Positions 18,438-53,649 are shown, counted from the stretch's first letter. The stretch is 64,000 nt of DNA from an uncultured Methanosarcinales archaeon (GCA_964498285.1 CAZCGN010000001.1:175916-239915), one strand, 5' to 3'. The notes: generated from the letters alone by a model not told the origin. Program-made: numbers and translations.

Positions 18438-19073
18438 TTATAGTTTTGGTGTGCAAGTAAAAAACCATAGATCAGACTCATCACATCGTGTTACATCAAA
18501 TCCTGAATTTTTAAATATCTTACACCACTCTTTTTGGGTATGGTTACTCTTCTCATGCCGTTTATGCCGAGAATTTACACCCTTTGCACTTAAGATTGCA
18601 ACAAATGTTCCTCTCTCTTGTAGGATTCTCTTCACTTCAGTTAGAAAAGAGGGGATTTTTTCAAGATAATTGAGAAGAAATACAGCAGTAATTGAAGTAA
18701 ATTCATTTTCTTTGAAAGGAAGATGTTTTTCAAGATCACCAACTACTTTTTCCATTGCATTCGCATTCTTATCTAGCATTTTTGCTGAACAATCAAACGC
18801 GATAGATGGGACATAACTATGCGCTCCTGCACCAAGGTCAAGGTTTGTTCCTTTTGGAAGCATTTCTCTTAGTTTTTCAGTGATACATCTTCGTTTAGCT
18901 TCATCAATTTTTGTATGCCATAAATAACTCTCGGCACTCCAAAACGCTTCTTTTTTTTCCGGCAAGCCTTCTGCCCATGGAATCTTCCTCGAAAGTTGCA
19001 TGAGTGAATCTTCTACTTTTTCTCCAAGACTTTGCTTGATTAATAATTTGAAAAATTCTGCTTCTGTATCCAT
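18438..19073 (-). CDS. Class I SAM-dependent methyltransferase
   Basis: Motif I TNLDLGAGAHSY and Rossmann-like secondary pattern. Confidence 0.6.
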   Translation of the reverse strand: MDTEAEFFKLLIKQSLGEKVEDSLMQLSRKIPWAEGLPEKKEAFWSAESYLWHTKIDEAKRRCITEKLREMLPKGTNLDLGAGAHSYVPSIAFDCSAKMLDKNANAMEKVVGDLEKHLPFKENEFTSITAVFLLNYLEKIPSFLTEVKRILQERGTFVAILSAKGVNSRHKRHEKSNHTQKEWCKIFKNSGFDVTRCDESDLWFFTCTPKL

Positions 19074-19131
19074 GTATAGTACTAAAAGGGCAAAAAGTTA
19101 TAAAAGGCTTTAGATGATTCTCTTTCTATGT

Positions 19132-19343
19132 GGGCTTGTGGTCTAGTGGCTACATATCAATAGAGATATGCCATAAATGATACCGCCTCGACATACACGA
19201 TCGTGTTCGATATGGCGGGGATCCCCGGTTCGAGCGCAATTCAATCAAAAACGCCGGGCGTTTTTGGTGTGCCAGAAAAATCTTTGTTTTTCTGAGCACT
19301 TTCGCCAACTGGCTGATTGAATCCGAAAATCCGGGCAGGCCCA
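19132..19343 (+). tRNA. Putative intron-containing tRNA gene (T-loop intron ~95 nt plus additional 5' intron(s)); anticodon not resolved
   Basis: 5' end GGGCTTG-TG-GTCT-AGTGGCTA is a canonical acceptor, D-stem and D-loop start. The 3' end CAGGCCC-A (19336-19343) pairs with GGGCTTG (one G:U). T-stem CCCGG (19224-28) pairs CCGGG (19331-35). Joining TTCGA (19229-33) to AT (19329-30) gives a canonical TTCGAAT loop, implying an intron at 19234-19328 closed by the 9-bp helix ATTCAATCA / TGATTGAAT. Anticodon stem candidate CCGCC (19183-87) / GGCGG (19214-18) leaves a 5-nt variable loop GGATC. The D-arm 3' strand and the anticodon loop need further intron(s). Confidence 0.35.
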
Positions 19344-19357
19344 TTATATTCACAAAG

Positions 19358-19828
19358 ATGGAACAACAAGAACAGCCAATTTACAAACTTGCAAAGAAAA
19401 AATCGCGCATGCTTATCCCTCACTTTTTCATGCTCGTGATTCTCTCCCTAATCTTTTATTTGGGAATACTTCTTAACCTCTCACTACTCAAATTGAAAGG
19501 AAGTACAGAAAGCACTGCAAAAACATATGTTCTTCTCATAATCTTTCTTCTTATCTTCTTAGGAATGATTCTTAAGTTTGCTAAATCAAAACAAACATAC
19601 AAGTTTTTCAGGCACAAAATCCTAATAGGGGGAAAAAAGAGTGTTTTGTTTATCAACATAAGTGAACTTGCAAAAAAGCGAGGAGTGTTGGATAAAATGT
19701 TTGGTACATATACCCTTGTTTTAACACACGATGCTAAGCTCGAGTTTATTCCACTATCGATTGACATGGAAAGTTATGTGAACCAGCTTGTCCAGTACAA
19801 TAAGGACCAAGCAACACAAGTGTATTGA
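19358..19828 (+). CDS. Small membrane protein (two TM helices followed by a PH-like soluble domain, DUF304-like)
   Basis: Two hydrophobic helices near the N-terminus, then a ~90-aa soluble domain. Confidence 0.3.
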   Translation: MEQQEQPIYKLAKKKSRMLIPHFFMLVILSLIFYLGILLNLSLLKLKGSTESTAKTYVLLIIFLLIFLGMILKFAKSKQTYKFFRHKILIGGKKSVLFINISELAKKRGVLDKMFGTYTLVLTHDAKLEFIPLSIDMESYVNQLVQYNKDQATQVY

Positions 19829-30682: not shown

Positions 30683-30758
30683 GGCGACCGTCGTACAACG
30701 GTTAGTATACGAGACTGTGGATCTCGTGACGGGGGTTCAACTCCCCCCGGTCGCCCCA
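30683..30758 (+). tRNA. tRNA-His (anticodon GTG) with genomically encoded G-1 and 3' CCA
   Basis: Acceptor GCGACCG/CGGTCGC. D-arm GTAC-AACGGTTA-GTAT. Anticodon arm CGAGA-CTGTGGA-TCTCG with GTG at 34-36. T-arm GGGGG-TTCAACT-CCCCC. Discriminator C73 pairs with an extra G at -1 (30683). CCA at 30756-58. Confidence 0.85.
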
Positions 30759-30854: not shown

Positions 30855-32147
30855 ATGGCACAGAAATTAAAAGTACAATCAGCAAAAGGTGTACGAGATA
30901 TCACTCCACAAACTAAAATACTCAAAAACCGAGTCGTTGCGACCCTACAAGAAGTCTTCGAACTCTATGGTTTTGCTCCACTAGAAAGTGCTCTTCTGCA
31001 ACGCTACGCAACCCTTTCTGCAAAATTTGCTGCAGGGGAAGAAAGTGATGCACTCAAAGAGATATTCAAACTAAGTGACCAAGGAAAGCGCAAGCTTGCA
31101 CTGAGGTTTGATTTAACAGTACCACTTGCAGCGTTCGTTGCGCAGAATCCCACAATGAAAATGCCGTTCAAACGCTATGAAGTTGGAAGAGTGTTTCGGG
31201 ATGGACCAATCAAGCTTGGAAGATACAGAGAATTTACACAGATGGATATTGATACGGTAGGAACCTCCAGTATGCTTGCTGATGCTGAAATTCTTGCTAT
31301 GACACAATCAGTATTTGATAAACTCAAATTTAATATTATCATCAAAGTAAATAATCGAAAACTTCTCAGCGGTATTCTAGAACAATGCTCGATCGATAAA
31401 AAAGAAGAAGCAATTATCTCTATTGATAAGCTCGATAAGATTGGCAAAAAAGGTGTTACACAAGAGCTCAAAGAGAAAGGGTACACACAAAAACAGGTTG
31501 ATCAGGTATTTACGCTCGTAAAAGAAGGCATAACTCTTAAAGAGCTCACAAAGAAGGTGACTGATCCGGAAGGTATTGAAGGTCTTAAGGAACTTGAAGA
31601 ACTGTTTGGATACCTTAAGAATATGGGTATTAAAAAGGCACAGTTTGATGTATCTTTAGCACGTGGTCTTGCATATTATACTGGAACAGCGTTTGAAGTA
31701 TTTTTCAAAAGCAAAAAGCCAATTTCATCATCTCTTGCAGGGGGCGGGAGATACGATAAAATGGTTGGAGATTTTGTAGGTGGAGGAAGAACCATTCCTG
31801 CCGTAGGTATATCGTTTGGCGTAGCACCCATTATGGATGCTATAAAAATCCAAGAGAAGAAGCAAGCCAAGACTCCTGCAAAAGTGTATGTTATTCCAAT
31901 CAACACAACGGTTGAGTCATTAAAAATTGCACAAGAGTTACGTGAAGGAAAAATTCCAACTAGTTTTGCTATGGGCAAGAAAGGTGTTTCTAAGAACTTG
32001 GAGTATGCAAGTAGTTTAGGAATTGAATATGTTGCAATCATTGGCGAAAAAGAACTGAGTAAAAAGAAAGTTCTTCTGCGTAACATGCTTGATGGAAACG
32101 AAGAATTGCTAAGTTGCGCGCAAGTAATTAAGAAACTGGGAAAATGA
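30855..32147 (+). CDS. hisS: Histidyl-tRNA synthetase
   Basis: Class II motifs (ALRFDLTVPLA, FRDGPIKLGRYREFTQMD, GGGRYDKMV) and C-terminal anticodon-binding domain. 430 aa. Confidence 0.9.
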   Translation: MAQKLKVQSAKGVRDITPQTKILKNRVVATLQEVFELYGFAPLESALLQRYATLSAKFAAGEESDALKEIFKLSDQGKRKLALRFDLTVPLAAFVAQNPTMKMPFKRYEVGRVFRDGPIKLGRYREFTQMDIDTVGTSSMLADAEILAMTQSVFDKLKFNIIIKVNNRKLLSGILEQCSIDKKEEAIISIDKLDKIGKKGVTQELKEKGYTQKQVDQVFTLVKEGITLKELTKKVTDPEGIEGLKELEELFGYLKNMGIKKAQFDVSLARGLAYYTGTAFEVFFKSKKPISSSLAGGGRYDKMVGDFVGGGRTIPAVGISFGVAPIMDAIKIQEKKQAKTPAKVYVIPINTTVESLKIAQELREGKIPTSFAMGKKGVSKNLEYASSLGIEYVAIIGEKELSKKKVLLRNMLDGNEELLSCAQVIKKLGK

Positions 32148-37530: not shown

Positions 37531-38277
37531 GTGAAATGTATTATTCCTTGTGCTGGTTACGCGACAAGACTCTATCCTTTAACAAAAGATAGACCAAAAG
37601 CTCTTCTGGATGTGCAAGGAAAACCCATATTAAATCATATCATTGCAAAGATTCAACAAATTGATGAGATTGATGAGATTTTTATTGTAAGTAATGAAAG
37701 ATTCTATAAACACTTTGATAGTTGGCTTAAAACAATTGACTGTTCAATACCAATCAGACTTATTAATGACCATACGAACTCTAACGAAGATAGACTTGGT
37801 CAAATTGGAGACATTAATCTCGCGCTCAAAGAGATGAGTGAGCCCACAGACATGCTTTTTATTTCAGGGGATAACCTCTTCAACTTTTCACTCAAAAAGC
37901 TGCATACATTTTTCAAAGAAAACAACGAATTCACTAATGGATTATACGATACAAAATCCTTTGAAGTTGCCCGAAACCTAGGTGTTGCAACTATGGATAC
38001 AAGTGGCAAGATTATTTCGTTCGAAGAAAAGCCGCAAAACCCAAAATCGACCCTCGTTTCATTAGGGATTTATTTTTTGCCCAAAAAACATTTTCACCTG
38101 ATGCAAAAATATCTTGCTTTAGGAAATAAGCCAGACAAAATTGGATATTTTCTAGTATGGCTTCTAGAAAATTATTGTTTATATGGCTTTGCCTATGAAG
38201 AAAAATGGTTTGATATTGGTTGGCAAGCGTCACTTGAGGAAGCGAGACAAGAGTTTGTTTGGAAGGATGAAAAATGA
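37531..38277 (+). CDS. Sugar-1-phosphate nucleotidyltransferase
   Basis: N-terminal MKCIIPCAGYATRLYPLTKDRPKALL (G-x-G-T-R-L motif), GT-A-like NTP_transferase fold. 248 aa. Confidence 0.75.
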   Translation: MKCIIPCAGYATRLYPLTKDRPKALLDVQGKPILNHIIAKIQQIDEIDEIFIVSNERFYKHFDSWLKTIDCSIPIRLINDHTNSNEDRLGQIGDINLALKEMSEPTDMLFISGDNLFNFSLKKLHTFFKENNEFTNGLYDTKSFEVARNLGVATMDTSGKIISFEEKPQNPKSTLVSLGIYFLPKKHFHLMQKYLALGNKPDKIGYFLVWLLENYCLYGFAYEEKWFDIGWQASLEEARQEFVWKDEK

Positions 38278-39479
38278 AACTCAAAGAATTTGAAGCAAAG
38301 AAACTTATCCAAGAAGTTGGGATTCCGACAAGTAAAGGGATTCTCATTACTGCAGAAGATGAAGTGCCAACAATCGCTGGGCCAACAATTGCCAAAGTTC
38401 AAACCATTGCAAATGGGCGGGGAAAGGCTGGCGGCATAAAAGTTATTGAAACATCGAAAGATGCTCAAGAATTTGCACGCAATTTTCTAGGAACAAAATT
38501 TTTAGGTGAGAAAATCGCTGAAATTCTCTTTGATCAGAAAGTTGATATAGCACAAGAATTCTATTTAGGTCTTCTTTTTGATACAACAAAACGCATGCCA
38601 GTGTTGGTTTTCTCTACACAAGGTGGAGTTGACATTGAAACACTAAGTAAAGAGTCTCCTGAAAAGATTCTTACACTTGAGATTGATTATCTTCAGGAAA
38701 TTACTCCTGCCCAAGCAGGTCTTGTAACACAGAGTTTGGAAATTGAAGAAAATGCAAAAAAGCAGCTACAAGATATTTTTACAAAACTCTTTACAGCATT
38801 CAAACGATTTGATTGTAAGATGATTGAGGTTAATCCACTTGTTCTCACGCCAAGCAATGATCTCATTGCTGTTGATTGTGTCGCTGTGCTTGACGATGAT
38901 GCAAAATATCGAAGGGAGATTGAATTTCCTGAGCGAACCGATACCCGTAAGGCAACAGACAGGGAAATAAGAGCACATCAAATTGATAAGGATGATCACA
39001 GAGGCGTTGCAGGAAAAACATACCTTGACCTTGATGGAGATATTGCGATCTTAACAAGTGGGGGTGGCGCTTCTATGACTCTTATGGACGCACTAGTAGA
39101 ATGTGGGGGTAAACCAGCAAACTTTACAGAGTATAGTGGAAACCCACCAATGGAAAAGGTTGAAAAGCTCACACAAATTGTGCTAGAAAAAGAAAATCTT
39201 TCTGGCCTTTTAATTGGAGGTGTTATTGCTAATTTTACTGATATTGCTGCAACTTTGCAAGGCGTTGTAAACATTTTGAAAGTAGTTAAGCCAACATATC
39301 CTATTGTTATTCGGCGTGCTGGACCGAATGATGATGAAGCAAAAAAAATGCTCGAAGAAGCCAGACAAGATTTTGGATTAAACATCCATTATTTTGATGA
39401 AAAAGTCCCACTTACAAAAGCTGCAAAGATCATGGTAGAACTATCAAACAAGTATAAAACAGAAAAAGGTGTGATGTGA
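38274..39479 (+). CDS. ATP-grasp subunit of citryl-CoA/succinyl-CoA synthetase type (SucC/CcsA/AclB-like)
   Basis: MKLKEFEAKKLIQEVGIPTSKG N-terminus like SucC, ATP-grasp region and C-terminal CoA-ligase domain. Overlaps the next gene by 4 nt. Confidence 0.6.
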   Translation: MKLKEFEAKKLIQEVGIPTSKGILITAEDEVPTIAGPTIAKVQTIANGRGKAGGIKVIETSKDAQEFARNFLGTKFLGEKIAEILFDQKVDIAQEFYLGLLFDTTKRMPVLVFSTQGGVDIETLSKESPEKILTLEIDYLQEITPAQAGLVTQSLEIEENAKKQLQDIFTKLFTAFKRFDCKMIEVNPLVLTPSNDLIAVDCVAVLDDDAKYRREIEFPERTDTRKATDREIRAHQIDKDDHRGVAGKTYLDLDGDIAILTSGGGASMTLMDALVECGGKPANFTEYSGNPPMEKVEKLTQIVLEKENLSGLLIGGVIANFTDIAATLQGVVNILKVVKPTYPIVIRRAGPNDDEAKKMLEEARQDFGLNIHYFDEKVPLTKAAKIMVELSNKYKTEKGVM

Positions 39480-40402
39480 TGAGCATACTCATAGATGAAC
39501 GGACTACTTTCCTAATTCAAGGGATTACTGGAAAACAAGGTGCTAGGGCGTGCTCAGAGATGCTCAAAGCTGGATCAAAAGTTGTGTGCGGCGTCACACC
39601 AAAAAAAGGTGGGCAAGAAGTTGAAGGAGTACCTGTCTTTAACTCTATTCAAGAAGCACTTGATTCTGGTCACACACCAACATGTAGTGTCATACTTGTG
39701 CCACCAAGATTTGCAAAAGGTGCAATTAAAGAAGCAATTACCGCATCAATTCCACTCATTAATGTCGTAACCGAAAATATCCCCATTCATGATATGGCAG
39801 AATGTTTTGCACTTGCAAAAAAGCAAGGGATTAGAATAGTTGGCCCCACCTCGGCAGGCATTTATTCTGTAGGAAAGTCAAAGTGCGGCCCAATTGCTTC
39901 AGGCAAATCAAAAATCGCATTTAGCAAAGGAACAATTGGCGTTATTTCTCGTAGTGGAGGAATGTCTTCTGAAACATCGTTAGTACTTAGTCAAGCGAGA
40001 CTCGGTCAATCAACTGTTGTAAGTTGCGGGAGTGACGTCCTTATGGGAGAAGCGTTTAGGGAACTTGTTCCACTCTTCGAAGAAGATTCCAAAACGCAAG
40101 GCATTGCTATTTTTGGGGAGATTGGAGGAACATCTGAAGAAGATCTTGCGGCATACTTAATACAACGTAAAAAGGAAGGCAAACCATTTACAAAACCAAT
40201 TGTAGCATTCATTTCAGGAACATTTGCTGAAAACCTAGGGATTCAAAATGTCTCGTTGGGACACGCTGGCGCCATTATCGAAGGAAATAAGGGAACACGA
40301 GAAAACAAAGTAAAAACTTTAAAAGAGGCAGGCGTTATTATTGCTCAAGTGCATCATGAAGTAGGTAACCTTATGAGAAAAGCGCTTGAAGAAGAGAGAT
40401 AG
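39476..40402 (+). CDS. CoA-binding/phosphohistidine subunit (SucD/CcsB-like)
   Basis: FLIQGITGKQGARACSEMLKAGSKVVCGVTPKKGG matches the SucD N-terminus. Active-site loop SLGHAGAIIEGNKGT. Confidence 0.65.
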   Translation: MMSILIDERTTFLIQGITGKQGARACSEMLKAGSKVVCGVTPKKGGQEVEGVPVFNSIQEALDSGHTPTCSVILVPPRFAKGAIKEAITASIPLINVVTENIPIHDMAECFALAKKQGIRIVGPTSAGIYSVGKSKCGPIASGKSKIAFSKGTIGVISRSGGMSSETSLVLSQARLGQSTVVSCGSDVLMGEAFRELVPLFEEDSKTQGIAIFGEIGGTSEEDLAAYLIQRKKEGKPFTKPIVAFISGTFAENLGIQNVSLGHAGAIIEGNKGTRENKVKTLKEAGVIIAQVHHEVGNLMRKALEEER

Positions 40403-40411
40403 CAATTAAAA

Positions 40412-41137
40412 ATGGAATATAAAACAAGAATCTCAAAATTACAAGAAGAACATACAATTAGAGGAGAAAAACTTTCCACGCTTGTGCAAAAAAATTCCTT
40501 TTCATACAATATTTTCTTTTTAGTTCTAGGAAGAAAGCCATCTGAAGCTGAAGCAACATTATTTGATAAGATGCTCAGTTGCGTGATTGACCATGGCATG
40601 GGTACAACTTCTTCTCAAACCGCAAGGTTCATAGCATCAGGTGGGAACGAGGTTAATGTTGCTGTTGGTGGCGCTCTTTTAAGTATTGGTGATTACCATG
40701 GTGGAGCTATTAAAAATGCAATGTCACAGTTCTATGCGTGGGAAAAATCGCAAAATGTCCAAGAACTTGTTGAGGAGATGATCACGCACAAGAAAACACT
40801 TTTTGGATTTGGTCATAAACACTATAAGAAAGGAGATCCGAGAGTTGCTGCACTTAAGGAAGAAATGAAACGTTTAGGATTTGAATCACGTTTTAGTAAA
40901 TATCTTGACATAGTTGAGGCAGCATTTGTAAAAGTAAAAGGAAGAGCAATTCTTGCAAATATCGATGGAATGATTGCTGCGCTCCTATGTGATTTTGGAG
41001 CTGATCCCAAACTTGGCAAAGGTTTTTTCCTTATTGGAAGAACTCCTGGACTTGTCGCACAGACAATTGAAGAACTCACGCATGAAAAGCCCGTTCGAAG
41101 AGTCCCTGAAGGCCAAATAGAGTACACTGAAGAGTAA
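40412..41137 (+). CDS. Short citrate-synthase-like protein (citryl-CoA lyase-type)
   Basis: 241 aa with citrate synthase C-terminal catalytic region (GGALLSIGDYHGGA, FGFGHKHYKKGDPRV) but lacking the N-terminal half of full-length citrate synthase. Confidence 0.5.
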   Translation: MEYKTRISKLQEEHTIRGEKLSTLVQKNSFSYNIFFLVLGRKPSEAEATLFDKMLSCVIDHGMGTTSSQTARFIASGGNEVNVAVGGALLSIGDYHGGAIKNAMSQFYAWEKSQNVQELVEEMITHKKTLFGFGHKHYKKGDPRVAALKEEMKRLGFESRFSKYLDIVEAAFVKVKGRAILANIDGMIAALLCDFGADPKLGKGFFLIGRTPGLVAQTIEELTHEKPVRRVPEGQIEYTEE

Positions 41138-41143
41138 TTGAGC

Positions 41144-41704
41144 TCATTTTGGTTTAATCCCTCGTTCTCTTAAACGATCTCGTAATCTTTGTCTTGCACG
41201 AAAAAGTCGATTCATAGCAGTCCCTTTTGGAATTGCTAAATGCTCTTGGATTTCTGAGTATGTTAAACCATCATAATGCCTAAGCCTAATTATCTGAGCG
41301 TGCGCAGGCGAAATTGTATCGAGCGCTTCTTCAATTCCTTCTCTAATTTGTCTAGCCCAAACTGGATCTGAATCATAACTAGGAGTTACCCAATTCTCGT
41401 CGAAACTAACTCTTCTTCCAACCAGATCTCTTCTTTTCTTTCTAGACCAATAATCTCTCACAACATTAACAGTAACCACCGTTGCCCAAGCCTTAAACGG
41501 CTTATCAGGATGATACGTATGTATGCCTCTAGTTATTCGCAGTAATGCTTCTTGTAAAAGATCCTCAGCAGTTGCTTCATCCCCCCTCAATAATTTCAAG
41601 ACCAACATATATGCCGATGGTTGGTACGAACGAAGAAGAGAATCTAAAGCTGAACTATCTCCTGCTACTGCTAACCTACCAAGATCTACTTCATCACAAC
41701 CCAT
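41144..41704 (-). CDS. ECF-type sigma-70 family RNA polymerase sigma factor (bacterial-type)
   Basis: Region 2 (EDLLQEALLRITRGIHTYHPDKPFKAWATVVTVNVVRDYWSRKKRR) and region 4 (LDTISPAHAQIIRLRHYDGLTYSEIQEHLAIPKGTAMNRLFRARQRLR). Confidence 0.7.
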   Translation of the reverse strand: MGCDEVDLGRLAVAGDSSALDSLLRSYQPSAYMLVLKLLRGDEATAEDLLQEALLRITRGIHTYHPDKPFKAWATVVTVNVVRDYWSRKKRRDLVGRRVSFDENWVTPSYDSDPVWARQIREGIEEALDTISPAHAQIIRLRHYDGLTYSEIQEHLAIPKGTAMNRLFRARQRLRDRLRERGIKPK

Positions 41705-44541: not shown

Positions 44542-44874
44542 ATGGTCCAAGGCATAGGAGTGGATATAGAAGAGATTGCACGTTTTAAAGAATCATATAA
44601 AGATGAACATTTTATCAACTTAGTTTTTACCCCTCGTGAAATTGCGTACTGTCAGAAGAAGAAAGAACCGTATATTAGTTTTGCAGGAAAATTTTGTGCC
44701 AAAGAAGCCGTAATTAAAGCAAGCAGCAAACCCCTTAGTGTTAAACAAATAGAGATTATAAATGAAAAAGATGGACAACCCACTGTCTTTATTAACGGGA
44801 TTAAAGAACCCTTCATTTCCTGTAGTATTTCGCACACAAAAGATAACGCCATAGCCTTTGTCATTATGAAATAA
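44542..44874 (+). CDS. acpS: Holo-ACP synthase (4'-phosphopantetheinyl transferase, AcpS type)
   Basis: GIGVDIEEIARF, FTPREIAYC, AGKFCAKEAVIKA and ISHTKDNAIAFV match AcpS signature blocks. 110 aa. Confidence 0.75.
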   Translation: MVQGIGVDIEEIARFKESYKDEHFINLVFTPREIAYCQKKKEPYISFAGKFCAKEAVIKASSKPLSVKQIEIINEKDGQPTVFINGIKEPFISCSISHTKDNAIAFVIMK

Positions 44875-44876
44875 AA

Positions 44877-45506
44877 ATGGAAGAGACGATTAGCAAGAAA
44901 CATAATTATTCCCAAGGTACCACCAGTTCTATTACAGTTCAGATTAAAAGTAGTAATATCCAAAAGGTAATTGAAAAGTTTAGAGAAGAAGAAAAACTGA
45001 ACATTAGTCCTGGAGATATAATTACCCATGCTGCTGGTCAGGCTTTACTAGATTTTCCTGAGTTTAATTCATCCTTTGCTAAGAAAGGAGAGCCATATCC
45101 TGATGTAAACATAGGCTATGCCATTAACCTTGGGCACGGACCAAAAACAGTTGTCATAAAAAGTGTTGCAAACAAATCTATTATTGAAGTTGCAAGTGAA
45201 GTTAAAAAATTGGCAGTAAAATATATTCGAAAAGAACTCTCAGAGGAAGATATGAATGGAGGGACTTTTTCTATATCGAACCTGTCTTCATTTGGAGTCC
45301 ACACAATGAACACCCCTACATTTGAGGATCAGTCCGCGTTACTTTCAATAAATTCAGAATATGACTCTATTGAATTCATTAAAGAAAGACCAATTCCAAT
45401 AAAACTATTTAACCTCTCACTCTCTTTTGATTTCCGTGTAGCAAACTGCCAACAAGCAGCTCAATTTTTAAAAAAAATTAAACATTTGCTTGAGAAATGT
45501 GACTAA
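44877..45506 (+). CDS. CAT / 2-oxoacid-dehydrogenase-E2-like acyltransferase fold protein
   Basis: C-terminal LSLSFDFRVANCQQAAQFL resembles the E2 DHRxxDG catalytic block, with Phe in place of the catalytic His. Confidence 0.35.
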   Translation: MEETISKKHNYSQGTTSSITVQIKSSNIQKVIEKFREEEKLNISPGDIITHAAGQALLDFPEFNSSFAKKGEPYPDVNIGYAINLGHGPKTVVIKSVANKSIIEVASEVKKLAVKYIRKELSEEDMNGGTFSISNLSSFGVHTMNTPTFEDQSALLSINSEYDSIEFIKERPIPIKLFNLSLSFDFRVANCQQAAQFLKKIKHLLEKCD

Positions 45507-45946
45507 CTTTTCAATTCCATAGTTTTATCTTCGAGAACGGTTACTTTGGCATTTCCATCAACAACAACTTCACCATTACAAATGATTTCTGTTTCCATAA
45601 TAATAACTCTTACACTATCAATCTTATCTTTAACTTTTCCCCGTATTAAAAGGGTAGAATTCGGATAGACTGGTTTTTTGAAATTTAGCTGTTGTGTTAA
45701 ACAAAGACATTTCTCACCTGGGCAAAGCATTCCAAAAAGAGTTGAAAAGTAGCTTGAAAGATGCAATCCGTGTGCAATAATTCCGTTAAACTGGGTCTTT
45801 TTGGCAAATGCTTCATCACAATGAAGGGGTTGCTTATTTCCCGTCAAAGAAATAAAATCATCAATACTCTCTTTTGTAAGAAGCTGAGTAAACTCAAACA
45901 CAGAACCAATTTTAATTTCCTCATAACTAAAACAGTTTGCATCCAT
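45503..45946 (-). CDS. MaoC-like hot-dog fold dehydratase
   Basis: 147 aa. Hot-dog core with GKVKDKIDSVRVIIMETEIICNGEVVVDG pattern. Confidence 0.55.
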   Translation of the reverse strand: MDANCFSYEEIKIGSVFEFTQLLTKESIDDFISLTGNKQPLHCDEAFAKKTQFNGIIAHGLHLSSYFSTLFGMLCPGEKCLCLTQQLNFKKPVYPNSTLLIRGKVKDKIDSVRVIIMETEIICNGEVVVDGNAKVTVLEDKTMELKS

Positions 45947-45949
45947 CTT

Positions 45950-46438
45950 TTATGTATTTTCACCTAAAGCCCCATGTTTTTTGAGAGCTTCTTTGATTTG
46001 GCCATATGTTCTAAGTTGCATAACTTCCTGTGTTGTAAACCTAACATTGAATGCTTTTTCTAAATCAGAAAAGAGCATCATACCTGCAAATGAATCATTT
46101 GATGTGAGCAAATCGCTGTTCAGACCTGCTTTAAGATCCTTTGTATCGATATTAAGATTTTTTTGAAGTATCTCCTGAAGTTTCTCTTCAGGAGTTTCCT
46201 TTTTCAACACTATCTGCTTACTTTGAAGAATTGTAATAATTTGTTCAACGTTGTTGAGTCGTAATATCTCTTCTTCTCTAAACGTAATGAGAAAAGATTT
46301 TTCAAGTTCAGCAATGATCTTAAAGTGGGCAAGAGAATCCCATCCTTCAACATTAAGCATTGAAGAATCAAGAGTGATTTTTGCTTGATCCAGACCTAAT
46401 GCTTGAGCCACAACTTCTTTAACTTTCTCATCAATCAT
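45950..46438 (-). CDS. Tandem (didomain) acyl carrier protein
   Basis: First domain has canonical LNVEGWDSLAHFKIIAELEKSF (DSL phosphopantetheine site). Second domain has TSNDSFAGMMLFSDLEKAF. Confidence 0.55.
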   Translation of the reverse strand: MIDEKVKEVVAQALGLDQAKITLDSSMLNVEGWDSLAHFKIIAELEKSFLITFREEEILRLNNVEQIITILQSKQIVLKKETPEEKLQEILQKNLNIDTKDLKAGLNSDLLTSNDSFAGMMLFSDLEKAFNVRFTTQEVMQLRTYGQIKEALKKHGALGENT

Positions 46439-46468
46439 TTTTTGCTCCCTCTAGCCAAATGGAGTTAT

Positions 46469-49276
46469 TTACTTTATATATTTGTCTGTATAATATGCTC
46501 GCAATTTTCGATAGAGTATCTTTTTTGTCGGCCCTTTGGGGATATTATCTAAATCTTCAAGTGTATTAATTATGATTATTTCTTTTGGTTGCTTGTATCC
46601 TGCAAGCTTTCCTGACAAAAAATCTATTAACTCTTCTTTTGTTGTAGAGCCATTTTCATGCAGCTTCACAAAAGCGCAAACTTCTTCTCCAAGTAGAGGG
46701 TGAGGAATCCCAATCACTGCGCATTCAGAAACACTATTATGTTTGAACAAAACATTCTCAACCTCACTTGGATAAATGTTCTCTCCCCCCTTAATGATCA
46801 AGAAATCTTTACGTGTCTTAAAGTAGATATAACCATCTTCATCTTTGTATCCAAAATCTCCACTACGAAACCAGCCATCTCTAAAATTCTGTTTGTTCTT
46901 CTCTTCAAGGTCAAAATATTCGTTCACAACATTCAAGCCGCGAATACAAATCTCTCCTTCTTGATGAGGTTGGAGTTCACAATCATTTTCATCACGTATA
47001 GTAATTCTATTAATAGGAAATTCTCTTCCAACTGATCCTTCTTTCCGCTTTTCTTTTGGATAATTGTTAAAACAAGCAAACGATGTTGTTTCTGTAAGAC
47101 CATAGCCTTCAAAAATTGGAACACTGAATCTTTCTTCAAATTTTCGTTGCACTTCTCTTGTAAGTACTTGCCCCCCACAGATTATCCCCCGCATTGATGT
47201 GTCTTTCCGCTCAATTGGCATACTAAGTAATATTGATAAAATTGAGGGCATAACACTTGTCCAGTTAACATTGTACTTATCAACAACAGACCAAAATGCA
47301 AGTAAGCTTGCCTTTCCTTGGATAATTACTGTTGACCCACCTGAATAAAGAGGTGTGAGAAGAGTTATCACCTGCCCATTGTTGTGAAATAACGGAAGAA
47401 TACAAAGTGTTCTTGTGGTTTTAGTAAAATGAAACCACTCAGAGATCACTTTGGCATCAGAAAGAAGGTTAAGATGAGTTAGCACTGCTCCTTTAGGATT
47501 TCCAGTGGTACCCGAAGTATAAATAATAACTGCTTCATCAGTAAGGTTTACCTTTGGAAAAGTGGATCTCACCTCCAAGATAGAATCATCCAAATCCCTC
47601 TCTTTAAGATTGCGAATCTCTGTTGCAGGACAAATCTCGACTTCTGATGAGACTTGACCTTTCAGTTCCTCAATTTTGGTTTTCAGTGATGAATCATAGA
47701 AAACTGTCTTGGATCTTGATTGGGTGATAATATAAGCCATTTCAGGCGCAGAAAGAGCTGGGTTAATTGGAACAACAGTTATGCCTAAGCGCAAAGCTGC
47801 AAAGTAAAGTAAAACAAATTCAGGAGAGTTTGGAATTATCAGGTTTATTCGCTCACCTTTGGAAACCTTTTTCTCTAAAAGATAATTTGCAACTTTTAGC
47901 AACATGTAATCAAACTCTTGATATGAAAATGATTCATTCATTCCTGGGAAAAAGGCAAAGGTTTTGTCTGGATCTTCTTGCACTTTTGCAGAAAATAGTT
48001 CATACACATTGTTATACTCAATTGGAAATGGCTCTCCTAACTTTTGGTGATCAAAAAGTTGCTCATCTTCCACAAGTATTGATGCTTCTTGTAGGGCAGG
48101 TTTTTCTAAGTATTGTTCTACAACATCCATTATATCTTGTAGAGTAGTCATCTTTAGAGAATCTCGAAACTTTATCTCGATACCAAACTTTTTTTCTACT
48201 GCAGAGAGGAGTTGAATATGTTTTAAAGAGTCCCACTCAAGATATTTTTCCATTGAGATATTCTCTTCATCTAATGAAAGATTGAGTACTTGCTCAAACA
48301 CTTCCTTAAGCCCTTCTCTAATTAAACTGTTAACCGAACTTTGTTTTGTGTTTGTATTAAAATGGCCTATAATATTTTGTGCCGCAAGTTGTGCCATATT
48401 ATGCCTGCATTCCTTTGTTGCAGTTCCAATGTGAGGAATTACAATACAATTCGGAAGATTACAAATAGGATGATTACCAGAAATTGGCTCAGGATCTGTA
48501 ACATCTAAACATGCCCCACGAACTTGCCCACTTTTTAAGGCAGCATAAAGATGATCAGTGTTTACGACTCCTCCACGAGCCATGTTAAGAAGGATAGGTT
48601 TTCTCGCCATTTTATTAAATGCAATTTGATCAATCAAGCCTTTTGTTTCTTCAGATAAAGGAACGTGTAAAGAAATATAATCTGAATGCGCAAGTAAGTA
48701 GTCCAGATCAACTTGTTTTACAGGAGGATCTTCTGAATCTACTTTTGAACGGTTGTGATATATTACATTAAGATCAAACCCCCGAGCTCGCTGGGCGACA
48801 GCTTTCCCTATTTTTCCAAAACCAATTATCCCAAAAGTCTTTCCACTCAACTCTTCTCCTAAGAACAGTTCTGGATCCCATGATTTCCAATTATCACTCC
48901 TGACAAATTCCTGTGCCAAAGATACTTGCCGTATTAGTTGCAAGAGAAGAGCAAAAGTCATATCCGCAGTGCTATTAGTTACAACGTTCGGCGTGTTATA
49001 AATAAAGATCCCTCTCTTTTTTGCATATTCCAAATCAATGTTGTCAAGACCTACTGCAAAATTTGAGATTACTTGAAGGTTGTTTTTAAGATCAAGAATC
49101 TCGGGAGTAAACTTTTCAGTAACTGAAGAGAGAATGCCATCATAACTGGAGACAACTTCTTTAAGTTTTTCTACAGAAAGAGGAGCATTATCATAACTTT
49201 CGTCCACGTGAAAATGTGCAGAGAGAATCTCTCTTGCAACCTTAGGCAACCTTCTTGTGATAAATATCTTTTTCAT
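46469..49276 (-). CDS. Tridomain enzyme: D-isomer 2-hydroxyacid dehydrogenase - carrier protein - AMP-binding adenylation domain
   Basis: The N-terminal ~310 aa form a D-isomer 2-hydroxyacid dehydrogenase domain (NAD-binding GKTFGIIGFGKIGKAV, catalytic His/Glu/Arg pattern). The middle ~70 aa are a carrier domain (EKYLEWDSLKHIQLLSAVEKKFG). The C-terminal ~530 aa are an adenylation domain (IIYTSGTTGNPKGAVLTH, YGLTETT, YFKTRKDFLIIKGGENIYPSEVE). 935 aa. Confidence 0.7.
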   Translation of the reverse strand: MKKIFITRRLPKVAREILSAHFHVDESYDNAPLSVEKLKEVVSSYDGILSSVTEKFTPEILDLKNNLQVISNFAVGLDNIDLEYAKKRGIFIYNTPNVVTNSTADMTFALLLQLIRQVSLAQEFVRSDNWKSWDPELFLGEELSGKTFGIIGFGKIGKAVAQRARGFDLNVIYHNRSKVDSEDPPVKQVDLDYLLAHSDYISLHVPLSEETKGLIDQIAFNKMARKPILLNMARGGVVNTDHLYAALKSGQVRGACLDVTDPEPISGNHPICNLPNCIVIPHIGTATKECRHNMAQLAAQNIIGHFNTNTKQSSVNSLIREGLKEVFEQVLNLSLDEENISMEKYLEWDSLKHIQLLSAVEKKFGIEIKFRDSLKMTTLQDIMDVVEQYLEKPALQEASILVEDEQLFDHQKLGEPFPIEYNNVYELFSAKVQEDPDKTFAFFPGMNESFSYQEFDYMLLKVANYLLEKKVSKGERINLIIPNSPEFVLLYFAALRLGITVVPINPALSAPEMAYIITQSRSKTVFYDSSLKTKIEELKGQVSSEVEICPATEIRNLKERDLDDSILEVRSTFPKVNLTDEAVIIYTSGTTGNPKGAVLTHLNLLSDAKVISEWFHFTKTTRTLCILPLFHNNGQVITLLTPLYSGGSTVIIQGKASLLAFWSVVDKYNVNWTSVMPSILSILLSMPIERKDTSMRGIICGGQVLTREVQRKFEERFSVPIFEGYGLTETTSFACFNNYPKEKRKEGSVGREFPINRITIRDENDCELQPHQEGEICIRGLNVVNEYFDLEEKNKQNFRDGWFRSGDFGYKDEDGYIYFKTRKDFLIIKGGENIYPSEVENVLFKHNSVSECAVIGIPHPLLGEEVCAFVKLHENGSTTKEELIDFLSGKLAGYKQPKEIIIINTLEDLDNIPKGPTKKILYRKLRAYYTDKYIK

Positions 49277-49303
49277 ATTTTTATATGCATTAGTCCTTCT
49301 TGT

Positions 49304-50611
49304 TTAGAGATCATTTGTGTAGTTAACTTCTGAAGATCTCTCCATTGAGGAAGTATTTGGAAGCGTTTCTTTTTTTCTTCTCAAATATTCGCCGACTTTC
49401 TTCATCCCTTGTTCTATAACTTCCAAATTATTGACTAATGGTCCAAAAGACACTCGTACTGCACCTGATAGAGTCCTACCAAAACCCCAACCTGGTACAA
49501 AAAGAACTGCAGATTCCTTAAGCACTTCTTCAACAAATTTTGCCCCATCATCACCAACTTTAATACAAGTATATAAACCACCTTTAGGTGTGAGTGCTGG
49601 AAGACCGATATATTCTTTGATTGCTTTAACTGTATGTTCGCCTGCTCGCCTATATTGTTCACTAATTTGTTTTGTATACGATCTTAAAGTGTTATTTTCT
49701 ATTGCATCGTTGAGATACTTTGTTAAAGCCATCTGATGAAGATTGTCGGGACAAAGAATGGATGACCCTTGAATTGATTCTAATGCGTGAACAATTTCAC
49801 TACTTGCCTCAATCCATCCTAACCGTCTTCCAAGACTTCTGCTCCACTTGGAGTTTGAATGAATTGTTAAGAAATGATCATCTGGTTTCCAGGAAAAGTA
49901 TTCTGGAAGATTTTCATCAAAGACCATATCCTTATACGCAAAATCAACAATGAGAAAACTTCCAACCTCCTTTACTGCTCTGAGGGCTGATGCAACAAAA
50001 TCATCTGACAAGACTTGTGAGGTTGGATTATCAGGCGAGACTAATAACACTACTTTTGGTCGTTCCTGAAGAATAAAATCATAAAACTCTTGGCATCGTC
50101 GATCCGCAACGTACTCCCATCGCTCAGTATCAATAACAGGAAAGCGTACAACTTCAACGTCTAAAGCAGTCGTTACCTGCGAAGGAAGATTACAATAACT
50201 TGGATCAAGAAGCGCCACTTTATCACCAGGGTTTAACAATACTTGCATAAGGTTAAAGGTAAGTTGAGTTGAACTCGCACCAATTGCTATATGCTGTGGC
50301 TCAAGCCCCAGGGTGCCATACAAATGGCTTTCATACCGAATAATGGCCTTTTTGCACTCAGGACTTCCAAGCGTTGCAGAATAACCACCGGACATGTGAA
50401 AACTTGCCTCATTTGAAACTATTTCTTGGTATGCTTTTTGTAATAATGATGGAGCTTTGTGATTAACCCACCCCCCGGCAAATGAGATAACTTCTGATGC
50501 TTCAACCCCTATTTTTTTAAAGTACGCTGGATCTGCATAGTCCATAATTTGCCTAATTGGAGAGATTGTTCTCCGAAAACTAAGTGATTTATCTGATAAC
50601 ATTGGTTTCAT
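49304..50611 (-). CDS. Class I/II PLP-dependent aminotransferase
   Basis: SNSKWSRSLGRRLGW (PLP-lysine region) and fold-type-I spacing. 435 aa. Confidence 0.7.
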   Translation of the reverse strand: MKPMLSDKSLSFRRTISPIRQIMDYADPAYFKKIGVEASEVISFAGGWVNHKAPSLLQKAYQEIVSNEASFHMSGGYSATLGSPECKKAIIRYESHLYGTLGLEPQHIAIGASSTQLTFNLMQVLLNPGDKVALLDPSYCNLPSQVTTALDVEVVRFPVIDTERWEYVADRRCQEFYDFILQERPKVVLLVSPDNPTSQVLSDDFVASALRAVKEVGSFLIVDFAYKDMVFDENLPEYFSWKPDDHFLTIHSNSKWSRSLGRRLGWIEASSEIVHALESIQGSSILCPDNLHQMALTKYLNDAIENNTLRSYTKQISEQYRRAGEHTVKAIKEYIGLPALTPKGGLYTCIKVGDDGAKFVEEVLKESAVLFVPGWGFGRTLSGAVRVSFGPLVNNLEVIEQGMKKVGEYLRRKKETLPNTSSMERSSEVNYTNDL

Positions 50612-50649
50612 TCTAGTATACCTCTTGTCGTGATTATTTTGTGATCATT

Positions 50650-51402
50650 TTATACGACCATCCCCCCGTCAATAACGAGAACCTGGCCTGTAACATAGCT
50701 TGACATTGCAGTTGCTAAGAACAGTGCACCTTTTGCAATCTCTTCTGGTTTTGCAATTCTTCGTAGTGAAGTTCTACTAACAAGTTTTTCCACGCGAGCC
50801 TTATCTAACGCATCTAGCATGTCTGTTTGAGTCAATCCTGGTGCTAGAGCATTTACTCGTATGCCCACCTCTCCCAACTCTTTTGCCGCAGCTTTTGTAA
50901 GCCCTATTACTCCTGCTTTACTTGAACAATACGGGGTTTGGCCCGCGTTTCCATAAATCCCAACCGAAGAAGTAACATTTATGATCCTGCCTCCATTTGG
51001 ATTGCTCATCATAAGTTTAGTTGCTTCATGCAAACAGTTATATGTTCCTTTTAAGTTAACATTCAAAATAGCATCCCAATCCTGCTCCTCTGTTTTTACA
51101 ATAAGATTATCTTTTAAGATTCCCGCATTATTAACAAGAACATCTATTTTGCCAAATTTTTCTTTGATCGTACGAAACATTTCAGCAACTTCATAAGAAT
51201 TACTTACATCTGCCTTAACCAAAAGCACTGTTGCTCCAATTTGTATGATCTCTTCTGCGGTTCTTTGTGCCTCAATATGATTCTTCAAATAATTTACTAT
51301 AACCATAGCTCCTTGCTTTGCAAACTCTAAAGCTATCGCTCGTCCAATTCCCCGACTTGCCCCAGTTACTAGGGCCACTTCCCCACGCATAAGGTCGATC
51401 AT
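50650..51402 (-). CDS. fabG: SDR-family 3-oxoacyl-(ACP) reductase (FabG-like)
   Basis: TGASRGIGRAIA, NNAG, and the YCSSKAG catalytic tetrad region. Confidence 0.8.
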   Translation of the reverse strand: MIDLMRGEVALVTGASRGIGRAIALEFAKQGAMVIVNYLKNHIEAQRTAEEIIQIGATVLLVKADVSNSYEVAEMFRTIKEKFGKIDVLVNNAGILKDNLIVKTEEQDWDAILNVNLKGTYNCLHEATKLMMSNPNGGRIINVTSSVGIYGNAGQTPYCSSKAGVIGLTKAAAKELGEVGIRVNALAPGLTQTDMLDALDKARVEKLVSRTSLRRIAKPEEIAKGALFLATAMSSYVTGQVLVIDGGMVV

Positions 51403-51491
51403 TTATAAACCTCTTCTGGTTGCATCAGGAGTATAAATAGATTATGGTCTTAGGGAACAGCAATCATCATGGGGGAAATCTACGAGGAGAA

Positions 51492-52415
51492 TTAGGGAGA
51501 CTTATGCTTGAGAATGCATGCATAATTTATTGGGGTTTTTTTATCTTCGGGTTTCTTTGCTGAAAATACATTTAAAACAAGTTCTTTTTCAATATCAAAA
51601 AATTCTTCAAGCATGTCCCGTACCTCTTGAGCTGATTTGAAAAGATAAATATGGTCTATTGCAGCAGCCCAAACTGCAGTTGTAAGGAAAAGTGTACCGC
51701 CCTTTTTAAGAAGCCCTTTGAGCTTTTTGAGAAGTGCTTTTGGATCTTCGAGATGTTCAAGTAATTCTCCACAAACTACCTTATCATATTGGCCTTCACT
51801 AGGAATATCAAAAATATTCTCTTTATGAATCATAGCCTTAATTCCATTATACTCTAAGACCTTTTTGCTAAACGTAACAGAGCTTGCACTAATATCATAT
51901 CCTTCAGCAACCCATTGTGGATTAGATCTCATAAACTCCGAAATAAACACTCCTGAGCCCACTGGAACCTCAATTATCTTGCCATTAGGAGAAAAAGGAG
52001 CTGAAAATTCCTTTAGAAAAAAAAGGAGCATCTTGTGATGGTTTATCCATAATGCCTGTGAAAGAAGAAGACCATTAAGATACCTTGTTTCCATAACTAA
52101 AGGATTATCATATACCTTTTCTTGGGCTTGTGAATAAGAGGAAAAAAGATATTTCCCCGTTTTTTCAAGTTCAATTTGCAATCGCAAAAACTCCATAGAA
52201 TATTCAATAAAATCTTTGATTGCTTTCGTGTACCTCTCCAAACTTTGGTTACAAAGAGCAAACATAGTTTGACACATCTTCTCGCCAAGCTCTCTGTCAT
52301 ATTTTGGATCAAGCAGTTTATCAGGAATACTCCTTGTTACAGGAGACTGCTTGAGTTGATCAAGAGTGTATGCAAATAGATCATCTGGTTTTGTATCGCC
52401 CATTGTTTCATTCAA
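51492..52415 (-). CDS. Class I SAM-dependent methyltransferase
   Basis: Motif I IIEVPVGSGVF and post-I acidic residue. 307 aa. Confidence 0.6.
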   Translation of the reverse strand: MNETMGDTKPDDLFAYTLDQLKQSPVTRSIPDKLLDPKYDRELGEKMCQTMFALCNQSLERYTKAIKDFIEYSMEFLRLQIELEKTGKYLFSSYSQAQEKVYDNPLVMETRYLNGLLLSQALWINHHKMLLFFLKEFSAPFSPNGKIIEVPVGSGVFISEFMRSNPQWVAEGYDISASSVTFSKKVLEYNGIKAMIHKENIFDIPSEGQYDKVVCGELLEHLEDPKALLKKLKGLLKKGGTLFLTTAVWAAAIDHIYLFKSAQEVRDMLEEFFDIEKELVLNVFSAKKPEDKKTPINYACILKHKSP

Positions 52416-53520
52416 TTAGATATTCTTCTTTTATTAATTCTCCCAACAAAGCTGCATAAACTTGATTCCCGTCAGCATTAAAATGACCATCAAAATTCCA
52501 ATGCATTTGAGTCGCTCGAGGGTGCTCTATTAAATCTTGAGTTGGATCAAAAAAATCAAGTCCTAAACGTTGTGTAATAATCGTATAGATTTCCTGAGCT
52601 ATCCTTGGGTTAAGATTTGCTTCATCCAAGTTATAACTCTCACTGATCACATCCAATCGTTCAGGATTTATTTGGTATGGTGGTGGAAGAAAAAGTACCA
52701 GAAGAGGGATATCTTGAGCTTGGGCTGATTTTTTCATCTCTGCAAGATTTTGGTATGTGCTATGGATACTATCTTGTATTGCAGGTGTGTTTCTTCCCTG
52801 CAGGAGAGCAAGATCAAAAGCATTAGAATTCCTCCCATGCCTATTAATTCCTAAGGTAGTAATTAATGTATGGCCAAGTGGCGTTGTTTTTGCTTTCCAA
52901 TAGAGGTGATTTATAAACTTGGAGTTCTCGTATACCCAAAGAGTAAAGGATTTTCTTTGTTGGGTACTACTTCTTTTATCAAATAGATTTGTTGCATACA
53001 AATTGCCGAGTCCTACTTCTACAACAATTAAATCAGGATTATATTTTGGTGCATACTCCTGGAGAATATAATTCATTTCACCAAGTCCACTACCCCCAAG
53101 GCCCAAATTTATAACTTCAACTCCTCCCATGGAAGATTCAAGAATACTAGGATATGTTTGTTCAAGATCAACCGTGTTGCCAAATACTGAAGATGACCCA
53201 ATTATTGCAATTCTATAAACTCCCTCTTCCTTTTGCAGGCTATGAAAGTCACGAAAACCTAAATGGTTTGTATTAATTGTGTATGAAAATTCTGAGGTGG
53301 ATTTTGTAAAGTTCGTCAAATTCACATAAACATTCTTCTTCAGTTCAGGAACAAATTGAGCATTTTCTTTTGGCCAAAGTCCTGGTGCCACTTCATCACT
53401 TTTAAATACGCGTACTCCTGCTTCCCCTGCTGCTAGACAAAGTAAGAGGACAACAAACAAAACAAGAAAGTTTATTCCTAAGTTGCGTAACTTTTTTTGA
53501 GTGTTCTTTGAAGGAGACAT
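52408..53520 (-). CDS. Membrane-anchored SGNH-hydrolase-like protein (AlgX/AlgJ/DltD-like O-acyltransferase candidate)
   Basis: N-terminal TM helix, then IAIIGSSSVFGN and GLGGSGLGE blocks consistent with an SGNH fold. Confidence 0.4.
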   Translation of the reverse strand: MSPSKNTQKKLRNLGINFLVLFVVLLLCLAAGEAGVRVFKSDEVAPGLWPKENAQFVPELKKNVYVNLTNFTKSTSEFSYTINTNHLGFRDFHSLQKEEGVYRIAIIGSSSVFGNTVDLEQTYPSILESSMGGVEVINLGLGGSGLGEMNYILQEYAPKYNPDLIVVEVGLGNLYATNLFDKRSSTQQRKSFTLWVYENSKFINHLYWKAKTTPLGHTLITTLGINRHGRNSNAFDLALLQGRNTPAIQDSIHSTYQNLAEMKKSAQAQDIPLLVLFLPPPYQINPERLDVISESYNLDEANLNPRIAQEIYTIITQRLGLDFFDPTQDLIEHPRATQMHWNFDGHFNADGNQVYAALLGELIKEEYLIE

Positions 53521-53649
53521 TTGCTTGAAATTTTCGAAGTATGTAGATATATAAAGATTTAGGAACGGTGAATTTGTTAACTTCCCAGGTAGCTATTTAC
53601 TACTCCCAAAAGCTAAATATTTTTAAACACTCAACTTGCTTAAAACCTC

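Follow-up and report, generated by a model that had tools for sequence, protein, structure and literature searches.

A predicted three-intron tRNA gene between two divergent ORFs

The DNA analysed here, a 64-kb stretch referred to below as the window, contains between two divergent ORFs a gap of 284 nt (19074-19357), as its preliminary description had reported. This region was read against intron-less relatives in combination with the bulge-helix-bulge (BHB) rule, by which each splice site was set directly behind nucleotide 2 of a 3-nt bulge. Four exons and three candidate introns of a tRNA-Val(GAC) gene were thus delineated. These features and their neighbours are listed below, where L numbers denote related loci from other sequences.

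18438-19073, minus strand: methyltransferase ORF, the divergent neighbour
19098-19105, plus strand: TATA-box-like element TTATAAAA, 3' end 26 nt upstream of tRNA nucleotide 1; putative promoter
19132-19343, plus strand: predicted tRNA-Val(GAC) gene, 212 nt raw and 73 nt spliced
19132-19151, plus strand: exon 1 (20 nt, tRNA positions 1-20a) with the 5' acceptor strand GGGCTTG, U8 and G9, the 5' D-stem strand GTCT and the D loop AGTGGCT; same in L082 and L085
19152-19176, plus strand: predicted intron 1 (25 nt, D loop, 20/21) with a relaxed HBh' motif
19177-19193, plus strand: exon 2 (17 nt, positions 21-37) with A21, the 3' D-stem strand TGAT, A26, the 5' anticodon-stem strand CCGCC, and U32, C33, G34, A35, C36 and A37; same in L085
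19194-19212, plus strand: predicted intron 2 (19 nt, anticodon loop, canonical position 37/38) with a strict hBHBh' motif
19213-19234, plus strand: exon 3 (22 nt, positions 38-59) with U38, the 3' anticodon-stem strand GGCGG, the variable loop GGATC, the 5' T-stem strand CCCGG and the T-loop part TTCGAG; same in L085, 21 of 22 nt in L082
19235-19329, plus strand: predicted intron 3 (95 nt, T loop, 59/60), whose motif is strict at the 3' bulge and relaxed on the 5' side
19330-19343, plus strand: exon 4 (14 nt, positions 60-73) with U60, the 3' T-stem strand CCGGG, the 3' acceptor strand CAGGCCC and the discriminator A73; same in L082 and L085
19358-19828, plus strand: 156-aa membrane-protein ORF, starting 14 nt after the discriminator

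Joining of the exons yields GGGCTTGTGGTCTAGTGGCTATGATACCGCCTCGACATGGCGGGGATCCCCGGTTCGAGTCCGGGCAGGCCCA, a product of 73 nt that forms a cloverleaf with the conserved U8, A14, G18-G19 and T loop, a 7-bp acceptor stem and the discriminator. A CCA end is not encoded after A73. All four exons are colinear on one strand within 212 nt, which ruled out a split or permuted tRNA gene.

All sequence elements of the preliminary description were recovered at the positions given there. The tRNA 5' half (GGGCTTG TG GTCT AGTGGCTA) indeed begins at 19132, and the 3' acceptor strand CAGGCCC with its following A ends at 19343 and pairs with the 5' strand at seven of seven positions, one of them G-U. The anticodon-stem candidate CCGCC/GGCGG is present together with a 5-nt variable loop (GGATC), and the 9-bp helix ATTCAATCA/TGATTGAAT of the T-loop insert is a perfect inverted repeat. 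Further introns had been expected upstream; exactly two were delineated, the 25-nt D-loop intron at 20/21 and the 19-nt canonical intron at 37/38, and the palindrome ACACGATCGTGT, found in the anticodon-loop insert as described, corresponds to the outer helix h' of the latter. Two statements on the T loop were only partly upheld. The T-stem halves CCCGG/CCGGG do flank TTCGA...AT with 95 nt in between, but the predicted mature T loop is TTCGAGT rather than the proposed TTCGAAT. Similarly, the intron length of 95 nt was retained, whereas the BHB register moved its junctions 1 nt in the 3' direction, from 19233/19234 and 19328/19329 to 19234/19235 and 19329/19330.

Flanking sequences and host

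The TATA-like element may also serve the divergent methyltransferase gene, which starts at 19073 on the minus strand. In four related loci (L083, L085, L088, L090), a TTTATAAA(A/T) box was found 23-27 nt upstream of tRNA position 1. A T-run between the tRNA and the 156-aa ORF is absent from the window (19344-19360); the tRNA genes of L082, L083, L085 and L090 are directly followed by T5-T7. The 156-aa ORF may share a transcript with the tRNA; alternatively, its own promoter may be embedded in the tRNA gene. An exact look-up of this ORF gave no record; its N-terminus is conserved in homologs.

Neighbouring genes encode ribosomal protein L35Ae, a HerA/DUF87 ATPase, a thermosome subunit and a family-B DNA polymerase, and proteins from Woesearchaeota/Nanoarchaeota MAGs match the HerA protein at 60-74% identity. 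Because of these genes and the HerA matches, the host is assigned to the Woesearchaeota-type DPANN archaea (38% GC). Genes for EndA and RtcB were not found in the 64-kb window, an absence of no weight given that the whole genome measures roughly 1 Mb.

Splice motifs and RNA folding

All three junction pairs carry BHB-type motifs: a strict one in the anticodon loop, and relaxed ones, of which HBh' and hBH are recognised forms, in the D and T loops. The motif around intron 2 consists of the 5-bp anticodon stem, a central helix UCGA/UCGA, bulges CA|U and UA|U, an outer helix ACAC/GUGU and the loop GAUC. When this arm was folded in isolation, its minimum free energy (MFE) structure was exactly this hBHBh' (-15.7 kcal/mol, z = -3.0).

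In the motif of intron 1, the central helix is formed by the D-loop nucleotides G15-U16-G18-G19 and CCAU of the intron. Its bulges are CU|A (5') and AA|A (3'), an outer hairpin of 6 bp (CAUAUC/GAUAUG) is present, and on the exon side it is closed by a weak outer helix only (A14-U22 plus U13-G23, or the D stem). The position of the intron 1 junction is ambiguous by 1 nt (A/A), which leaves the spliced product unaffected. Intron 3 combines the 5-bp T stem with a central helix UUCG/CGAA and a strict 3' bulge AA|U. On its relaxed 5' side, the cut AG|C is followed by one G-C pair, a CA bulge and the 9-bp helix. Its interior forms two strong hairpins (19247-19267 and 19270-19301) and contains two T5 runs (19261-19265 and 19287-19291), which are potential archaeal terminators; the fold of this arm gave z = -4.0. 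The presence of two relaxed motifs (T-loop 5' site, D-loop 3' site) implies a broad-specificity EndA. Strict, HBh' and hBH-like motifs occurring in one substrate help to define the substrate range of DPANN splicing endonucleases, which have been little studied.

The 212-nt RNA as a whole folded at -81.6 kcal/mol, as compared to -59.6 ± 4.7 kcal/mol for 200 dinucleotide shuffles, none of which reached this value (z = -4.7, 0/200). Its MFE or centroid structure included the acceptor stem, the BHB of the anticodon arm and, in the T arm, both the stem and its central helix, and at the D-loop intron the centroid fold showed a UGGC/GCCA helix plus hairpin. When the introns of the window were shuffled, all three central helices were obtained in 2.5e-5 of the trials.

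Detection by tRNA finders

That the gene would be missed by standard finders was confirmed for ARAGORN and for the Rfam tRNA model on raw DNA. ARAGORN returned either nothing or a spurious low-threshold tRNA-Asn for the raw region with default, intron and relaxed settings. Between 19000 and 19500, tRNA or intron family matches in Rfam were absent both at the gathering threshold and at E <= 10, and only weak sub-threshold sRNA matches, driven by the intron 3 hairpin, were seen at the locus. Applied to the whole window, these tools found only a tRNA-His (30684-30758) and a 5S rRNA; a search of the other intergenic gaps of the window revealed no hidden tRNAs.

ARAGORN recognised the in-silico spliced 73-nt product as tRNA-Val(GAC), and with constructs that retained any of the three inserts it was silent or wrong. 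It also missed or miscalled all 13 orthologous genes in their unspliced form. An Ile(GAT) proposed by ARAGORN from single-intron solutions in the anticodon loop was rejected: this solution breaks the BHB register, and all orthologs have GAC at positions 34-36.

GUY codons make up 54% of the valine codons in 21 window genes, which indicates that a tRNA-Val(GAC) is needed as decoder; a second, uninterrupted copy may lie outside the window. Genomes of this lineage may seem to be without a GUY valine decoder, which could be misread as incompleteness or host dependence.

Orthologous genes and covariation

A HerA-based synteny search in GTDB genomes yielded 80 loci, and the orthologous tRNA was found only in L043 and L047. 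In these MAG loci, a tRNA-Val(GAC) gene with the canonical intron only is located downstream of HerA. L001, L003 and L067 carry homologs of the neighbouring genes, and the tRNA is absent there. A metagenome scan, whose pattern required only an insert of 5-35 nt separating the GCTA of the D loop from the D-stem/anticodon arm and left the acceptor and T stems outside, gave 13 loci, all of them tRNA-Val(GAC) genes with one to three introns at the same three sites and a spliced length of exactly 73 nt. L082 and L085, the latter from the 0.1-um fraction of Hainich H41 groundwater, have three introns, sited as in the window. D-loop and T-loop introns are combined in L083/L086 and L090-L092, D-loop and canonical introns in L084, L088, L089 and L093, and L087 has the D-loop intron alone. 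The intron sites are common to the window and 10 or more other metagenomic or MAG sequences, and the ortholog series, with one to three introns at three fixed sites, offers material for the study of intron gain, loss and replacement.

Where flanking sequence exists (L082, L083, L085, L089, L043, L047), the neighbourhood is conserved: a homolog of the 156-aa membrane-protein ORF is close to the tRNA gene, as are, in varying combinations, homologs of the methyltransferase, a 505-aa protein and HerA. This shared neighbourhood (L082, L083, L085, L089) indicates that the tRNA genes are orthologs. The exons of the window and L085 are identical at all 73 of 73 positions, as compared to 16/25, 17/36 and 33/95 for the three introns, and translated-DNA matches for the neighbouring genes show roughly 35-70% identity. 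As judged from these alignments, selection acts on the exons only and the introns are free to vary, save for the bases that build the BHB motifs.

In an alignment of 12 distinct spliced orthologs, 95% of the cells of the cloverleaf were paired, with compensatory (double) changes at 10 of the 21 pairs, those of the acceptor stem included. None of 500 shuffles performed as well, and the signal collapsed at every slid register. A U13-U22 mismatch in the D stem is common to all orthologs; their stems are otherwise fully paired.

The central helices of the BHB motifs were complete (4/4) at the predicted register in 22 of 23 distinct junctions and in none of the 23 at offsets of ±1 to 4 nt, a statistic that is favoured by the assignment of splice sites while BHB geometry was being sought; the 73-nt match to intron-less orthologs fixes these sites independently to ±1 nt. 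Exact cut positions are accordingly given as predictions at this resolution. In eleven orthologs the D loop is interrupted at this site too, with identical bulges and a covarying central helix (GTGG with CCAT, CCAC, CCGC or CTAC; GTAG with CTAC). A canonical-site intron in matching register occurs in nine orthologs. The T-loop intron is at the same site in L082, L085, L083/L086 and L090-L092, with TTCG/CGAA, TGCA/TGCA and TTCA/TGAA as central helices. Intron bases tracked changes in the exons, as seen in C33-G versus U33-A, U55-A versus G55-C, and G18-C versus A18-U.

The cut rule also regenerated loops that occur without an intron in orthologs. For the T loop, TGCAAG|T of L083 equals TGCAAGT of L043, and for the anticodon loop, TTGACT|T of L082 and L043 equals TTGACTT of L083, a loop with no intron. 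The rule was accepted despite a pyrimidine at position 37 in L043, L047 and L082, because intron-less orthologs show the same TTGACTT loop.

The mature anticodon loop of the window and L085 (UCGACAU) has C33 instead of the near-universal U33. Since it occurs in L085 as well, C33 is not a sequencing error; in both sequences it is compensated by a G on the intron side of the central helix. Most orthologs (L082, L083, L089, L090, L093, L043 and L047) have a pyrimidine at position 37 (UUGACUU, CUGACUC, CUGACCC). This pyrimidine is also found in intron-less loops and is therefore not a splice-site artefact.

Interpretation of the locus and alternative explanations

The locus is very probably a genuine and functional tRNA-Val(GAC) gene of a Woesearchaeota-type DPANN archaeon, with three introns of the BHB type. 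The proposal of a multi-intron archaeal tRNA gene was borne out by the spliced cloverleaf, the BHB motifs and the orthologs with introns at the same three sites, and splicing of the precursor is predicted from these sequence features. A decaying tRNA pseudogene or relic with three insertions that is no longer processed is an improbable alternative. It could account for the failure of standard finders to recognise the locus, for C33, for the relaxed BHB motifs at two junctions, for the internal T5 runs and for the lack of a downstream T-run. However, in such a relic the exons would not be expected to match L085 at 73 of 73 positions although introns and neighbouring proteins have strongly diverged. 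Moreover, all stems are intact and show compensatory changes across orthologs, exon-paired intron bases covary with the exons in a way not expected of junk insertions, and C33 is compensated by an intron-strand G in both the window and L085.

As another alternative to a spliced intron, the 95-nt insert of the T loop could be a MITE-like element bounded by terminal inverted repeats of 9 bp, or a cassette carrying an intrinsic terminator. The perfect 9-bp repeat near both ends of the insert, a hairpin followed by T5 that resembles a terminator, and a length twice that in relatives are consistent with such an origin. This explanation is nevertheless highly improbable, as a target-site duplication is absent (no flanking direct repeat) and neither the insert nor its arms recur in the 64-kb window or in about 900 kb in 93 related loci. 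In addition, the inverted repeat sits where the h' helix of a BHB motif is expected, and the same 59/60 site holds unrelated sequences in L082/L085, L083 and L090-L092 with the same geometry of T stem, 4-bp helix and 3-nt bulge. Self-splicing group I or II introns, or mere chance resemblance, are extremely improbable. Group I introns are known from tRNA genes of Patescibacteria and from archaea. However, the catalytic cores of group I and II introns (P3-P9 or domains I-VI) typically exceed 200 nt, the inserts of 19, 25 and 95 nt are far too short for either, and no Rfam intron family was matched at E <= 10 (19000-19500). The z-score of the fold, the outcome of the shuffle tests and the existence of orthologs rule out chance.

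For the three-intron tRNA-Val(GAC) gene, the following processing route is proposed. The transcript would begin some 25 nt past the TATA box (19098-19105) and form a precursor of about 212 nt, in which each intron would pair with the adjacent exon to form a 4-bp central helix with 3-nt bulges. EndA would then cut after the second bulge nucleotide, at 19151/52, 19176/77, 19193/94, 19212/13, 19234/35 and 19329/30, and an RtcB-type ligase would join the four exons (20 + 17 + 22 + 14 nt). RNase P, RNase Z and the CCA-adding enzyme would finish the 73-nt tRNA plus CCA, which would decode GUY valine codons.

Comparison with known archaeal tRNA introns

Introns at positions 20/21 and 59/60 of archaeal tRNA genes, as well as tRNAs with three introns, are established (PMC4090602). 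With its introns at 20/21, 37/38 and 59/60, the window gene is a new member of this class and involves no new mechanism. A prior description of this tRNA-Val(GAC) family or of its three-intron architecture was not found in the searchable literature; together with its orthologs, the gene makes up a family of a known kind that is delineated here for the first time.

In tRNA-Pro(UGG) of Pyrobaculum islandicum, introns are located at 25/26, 37/38 and 56/57 (Sugahara et al., 2007, via PMC4090602). The multi-intron tRNA genes of Thermoproteales, of which this is one example, have in common with the window gene a set of three BHB-type introns (canonical, D-arm and T-arm), a mixture of strict and relaxed motifs, and the fact that ordinary finders miss them. 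In contrast, the window host is a mesophilic, AT-rich Woesearchaeota-type DPANN archaeon and not a crenarchaeon, the intron positions differ, and the T-loop intron is, at 95 nt, unusually long.

A second parallel is provided by pre-tRNA-Glu(UUC) of Methanopyrus kandleri, which has a relaxed HBh' D-loop intron and a canonical intron and whose middle exon runs from A21 to G37 (PMC5829648). As in the window, introns precede A21 and occupy 37/38, and the D-loop motif is of the HBh' type, with a strong central helix and inner hairpin and a weak outer helix. It differs in the lack of a T-loop intron and in isoacceptor and phylum; moreover, cleavage was shown biochemically in M. kandleri, whereas it is predicted here.

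Disrupted tRNA genes are also known from DPANN archaea, the superphylum to which the window gene is assigned. They occur in ARMAN-1 and ARMAN-2, which have an epsilon2 EndA; elsewhere in DPANN, an alpha4 EndA with an L3 loop is found (PMC3239211, PMC5829648). The L3-loop alpha4 EndA has been tied to more tRNA gene disruption in several DPANN lineages in a survey that included a Woesearchaeote, and incomplete DPANN tRNA sets were taken to imply undetected disrupted tRNA genes (PMC5829648).

Variation of the T-loop intron and of the D-loop/T-loop contact

In L082 (8185-8226) and L085 (1585-1626), the 42-nt T-loop intron is identical at all 42 positions. The other two introns of this pair match at 16/22 and 15/36 positions, and otherwise only a nearby protein was detectably similar, at 38-52% identity. 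At the same 59/60 site, the window has an unrelated intron of 95 nt with two hairpins. This pattern could result from intron replacement, transfer or transposition, from gene conversion of tRNA 3' halves between lineages or from a function of the excised (circular) intron, and constraint on the intron is a possible alternative cause. Intron replacement or transposition has been proposed for Thermoproteales. That the T-loop intron is a functional or mobile RNA module, and not a neutral spacer, is a tentative and rather unlikely reading of these sequence data.

Alignment columns 17 and 55 (window 19148 and 19230) varied together. The D loop AGTGGCTA (G18) was always combined with a TTCRA.. T loop (U55), and the D loop AGTAGCTA (A18) always with TGCAA.. 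(G55). Among the distinct tRNA-Val(GAC) sequences, seven were of the G18/U55 type and five of the A18/G55 type (L043, L047, L083, L089, L093). A tRNA-Thr(UGU) in L078 (984-1056, minus strand) also has A18/G55. This distribution suggests that the near-universal G18-Psi55 contact may have undergone lineage-specific replacement by A18/G55. No report of an A18/G55 tertiary-pair variant turned up when the literature was searched.

Other genes in the window

An intron-less tRNA-His(GTG) gene (30684-30758, plus strand) is located 97 nt upstream of a histidyl-tRNA synthetase gene (30855-32147, plus strand). At 41144-41704 on the minus strand, a gene for an ECF-type sigma-70 factor (Pfam Sigma70_r2 and r4) was found in the otherwise archaeal contig, which could reflect horizontal transfer of a bacterial-type gene or an assembly chimera. 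At 38274-41137 (plus strand), ATP-grasp/citrate-binding, CoA-ligase and citrate-synthase C-terminal domains are encoded by three adjacent genes, an arrangement reminiscent of an ATP-citrate lyase in split form or of a citryl-CoA system. A cluster at 44542-56068 encodes a phosphopantetheinyl transferase, a PP-binding carrier protein, a 935-aa fusion of 2-hydroxyacid-dehydrogenase and AMP-binding domains, a ketoreductase, an aminotransferase, a MaoC dehydratase and an MBOAT protein, and is followed by genes for a PEP mutase (59385-60749) and a phosphonate-binding protein. The cluster looks like a locus for surface-polymer or phosphonate modification, an uncommon feature among reduced DPANN genomes.
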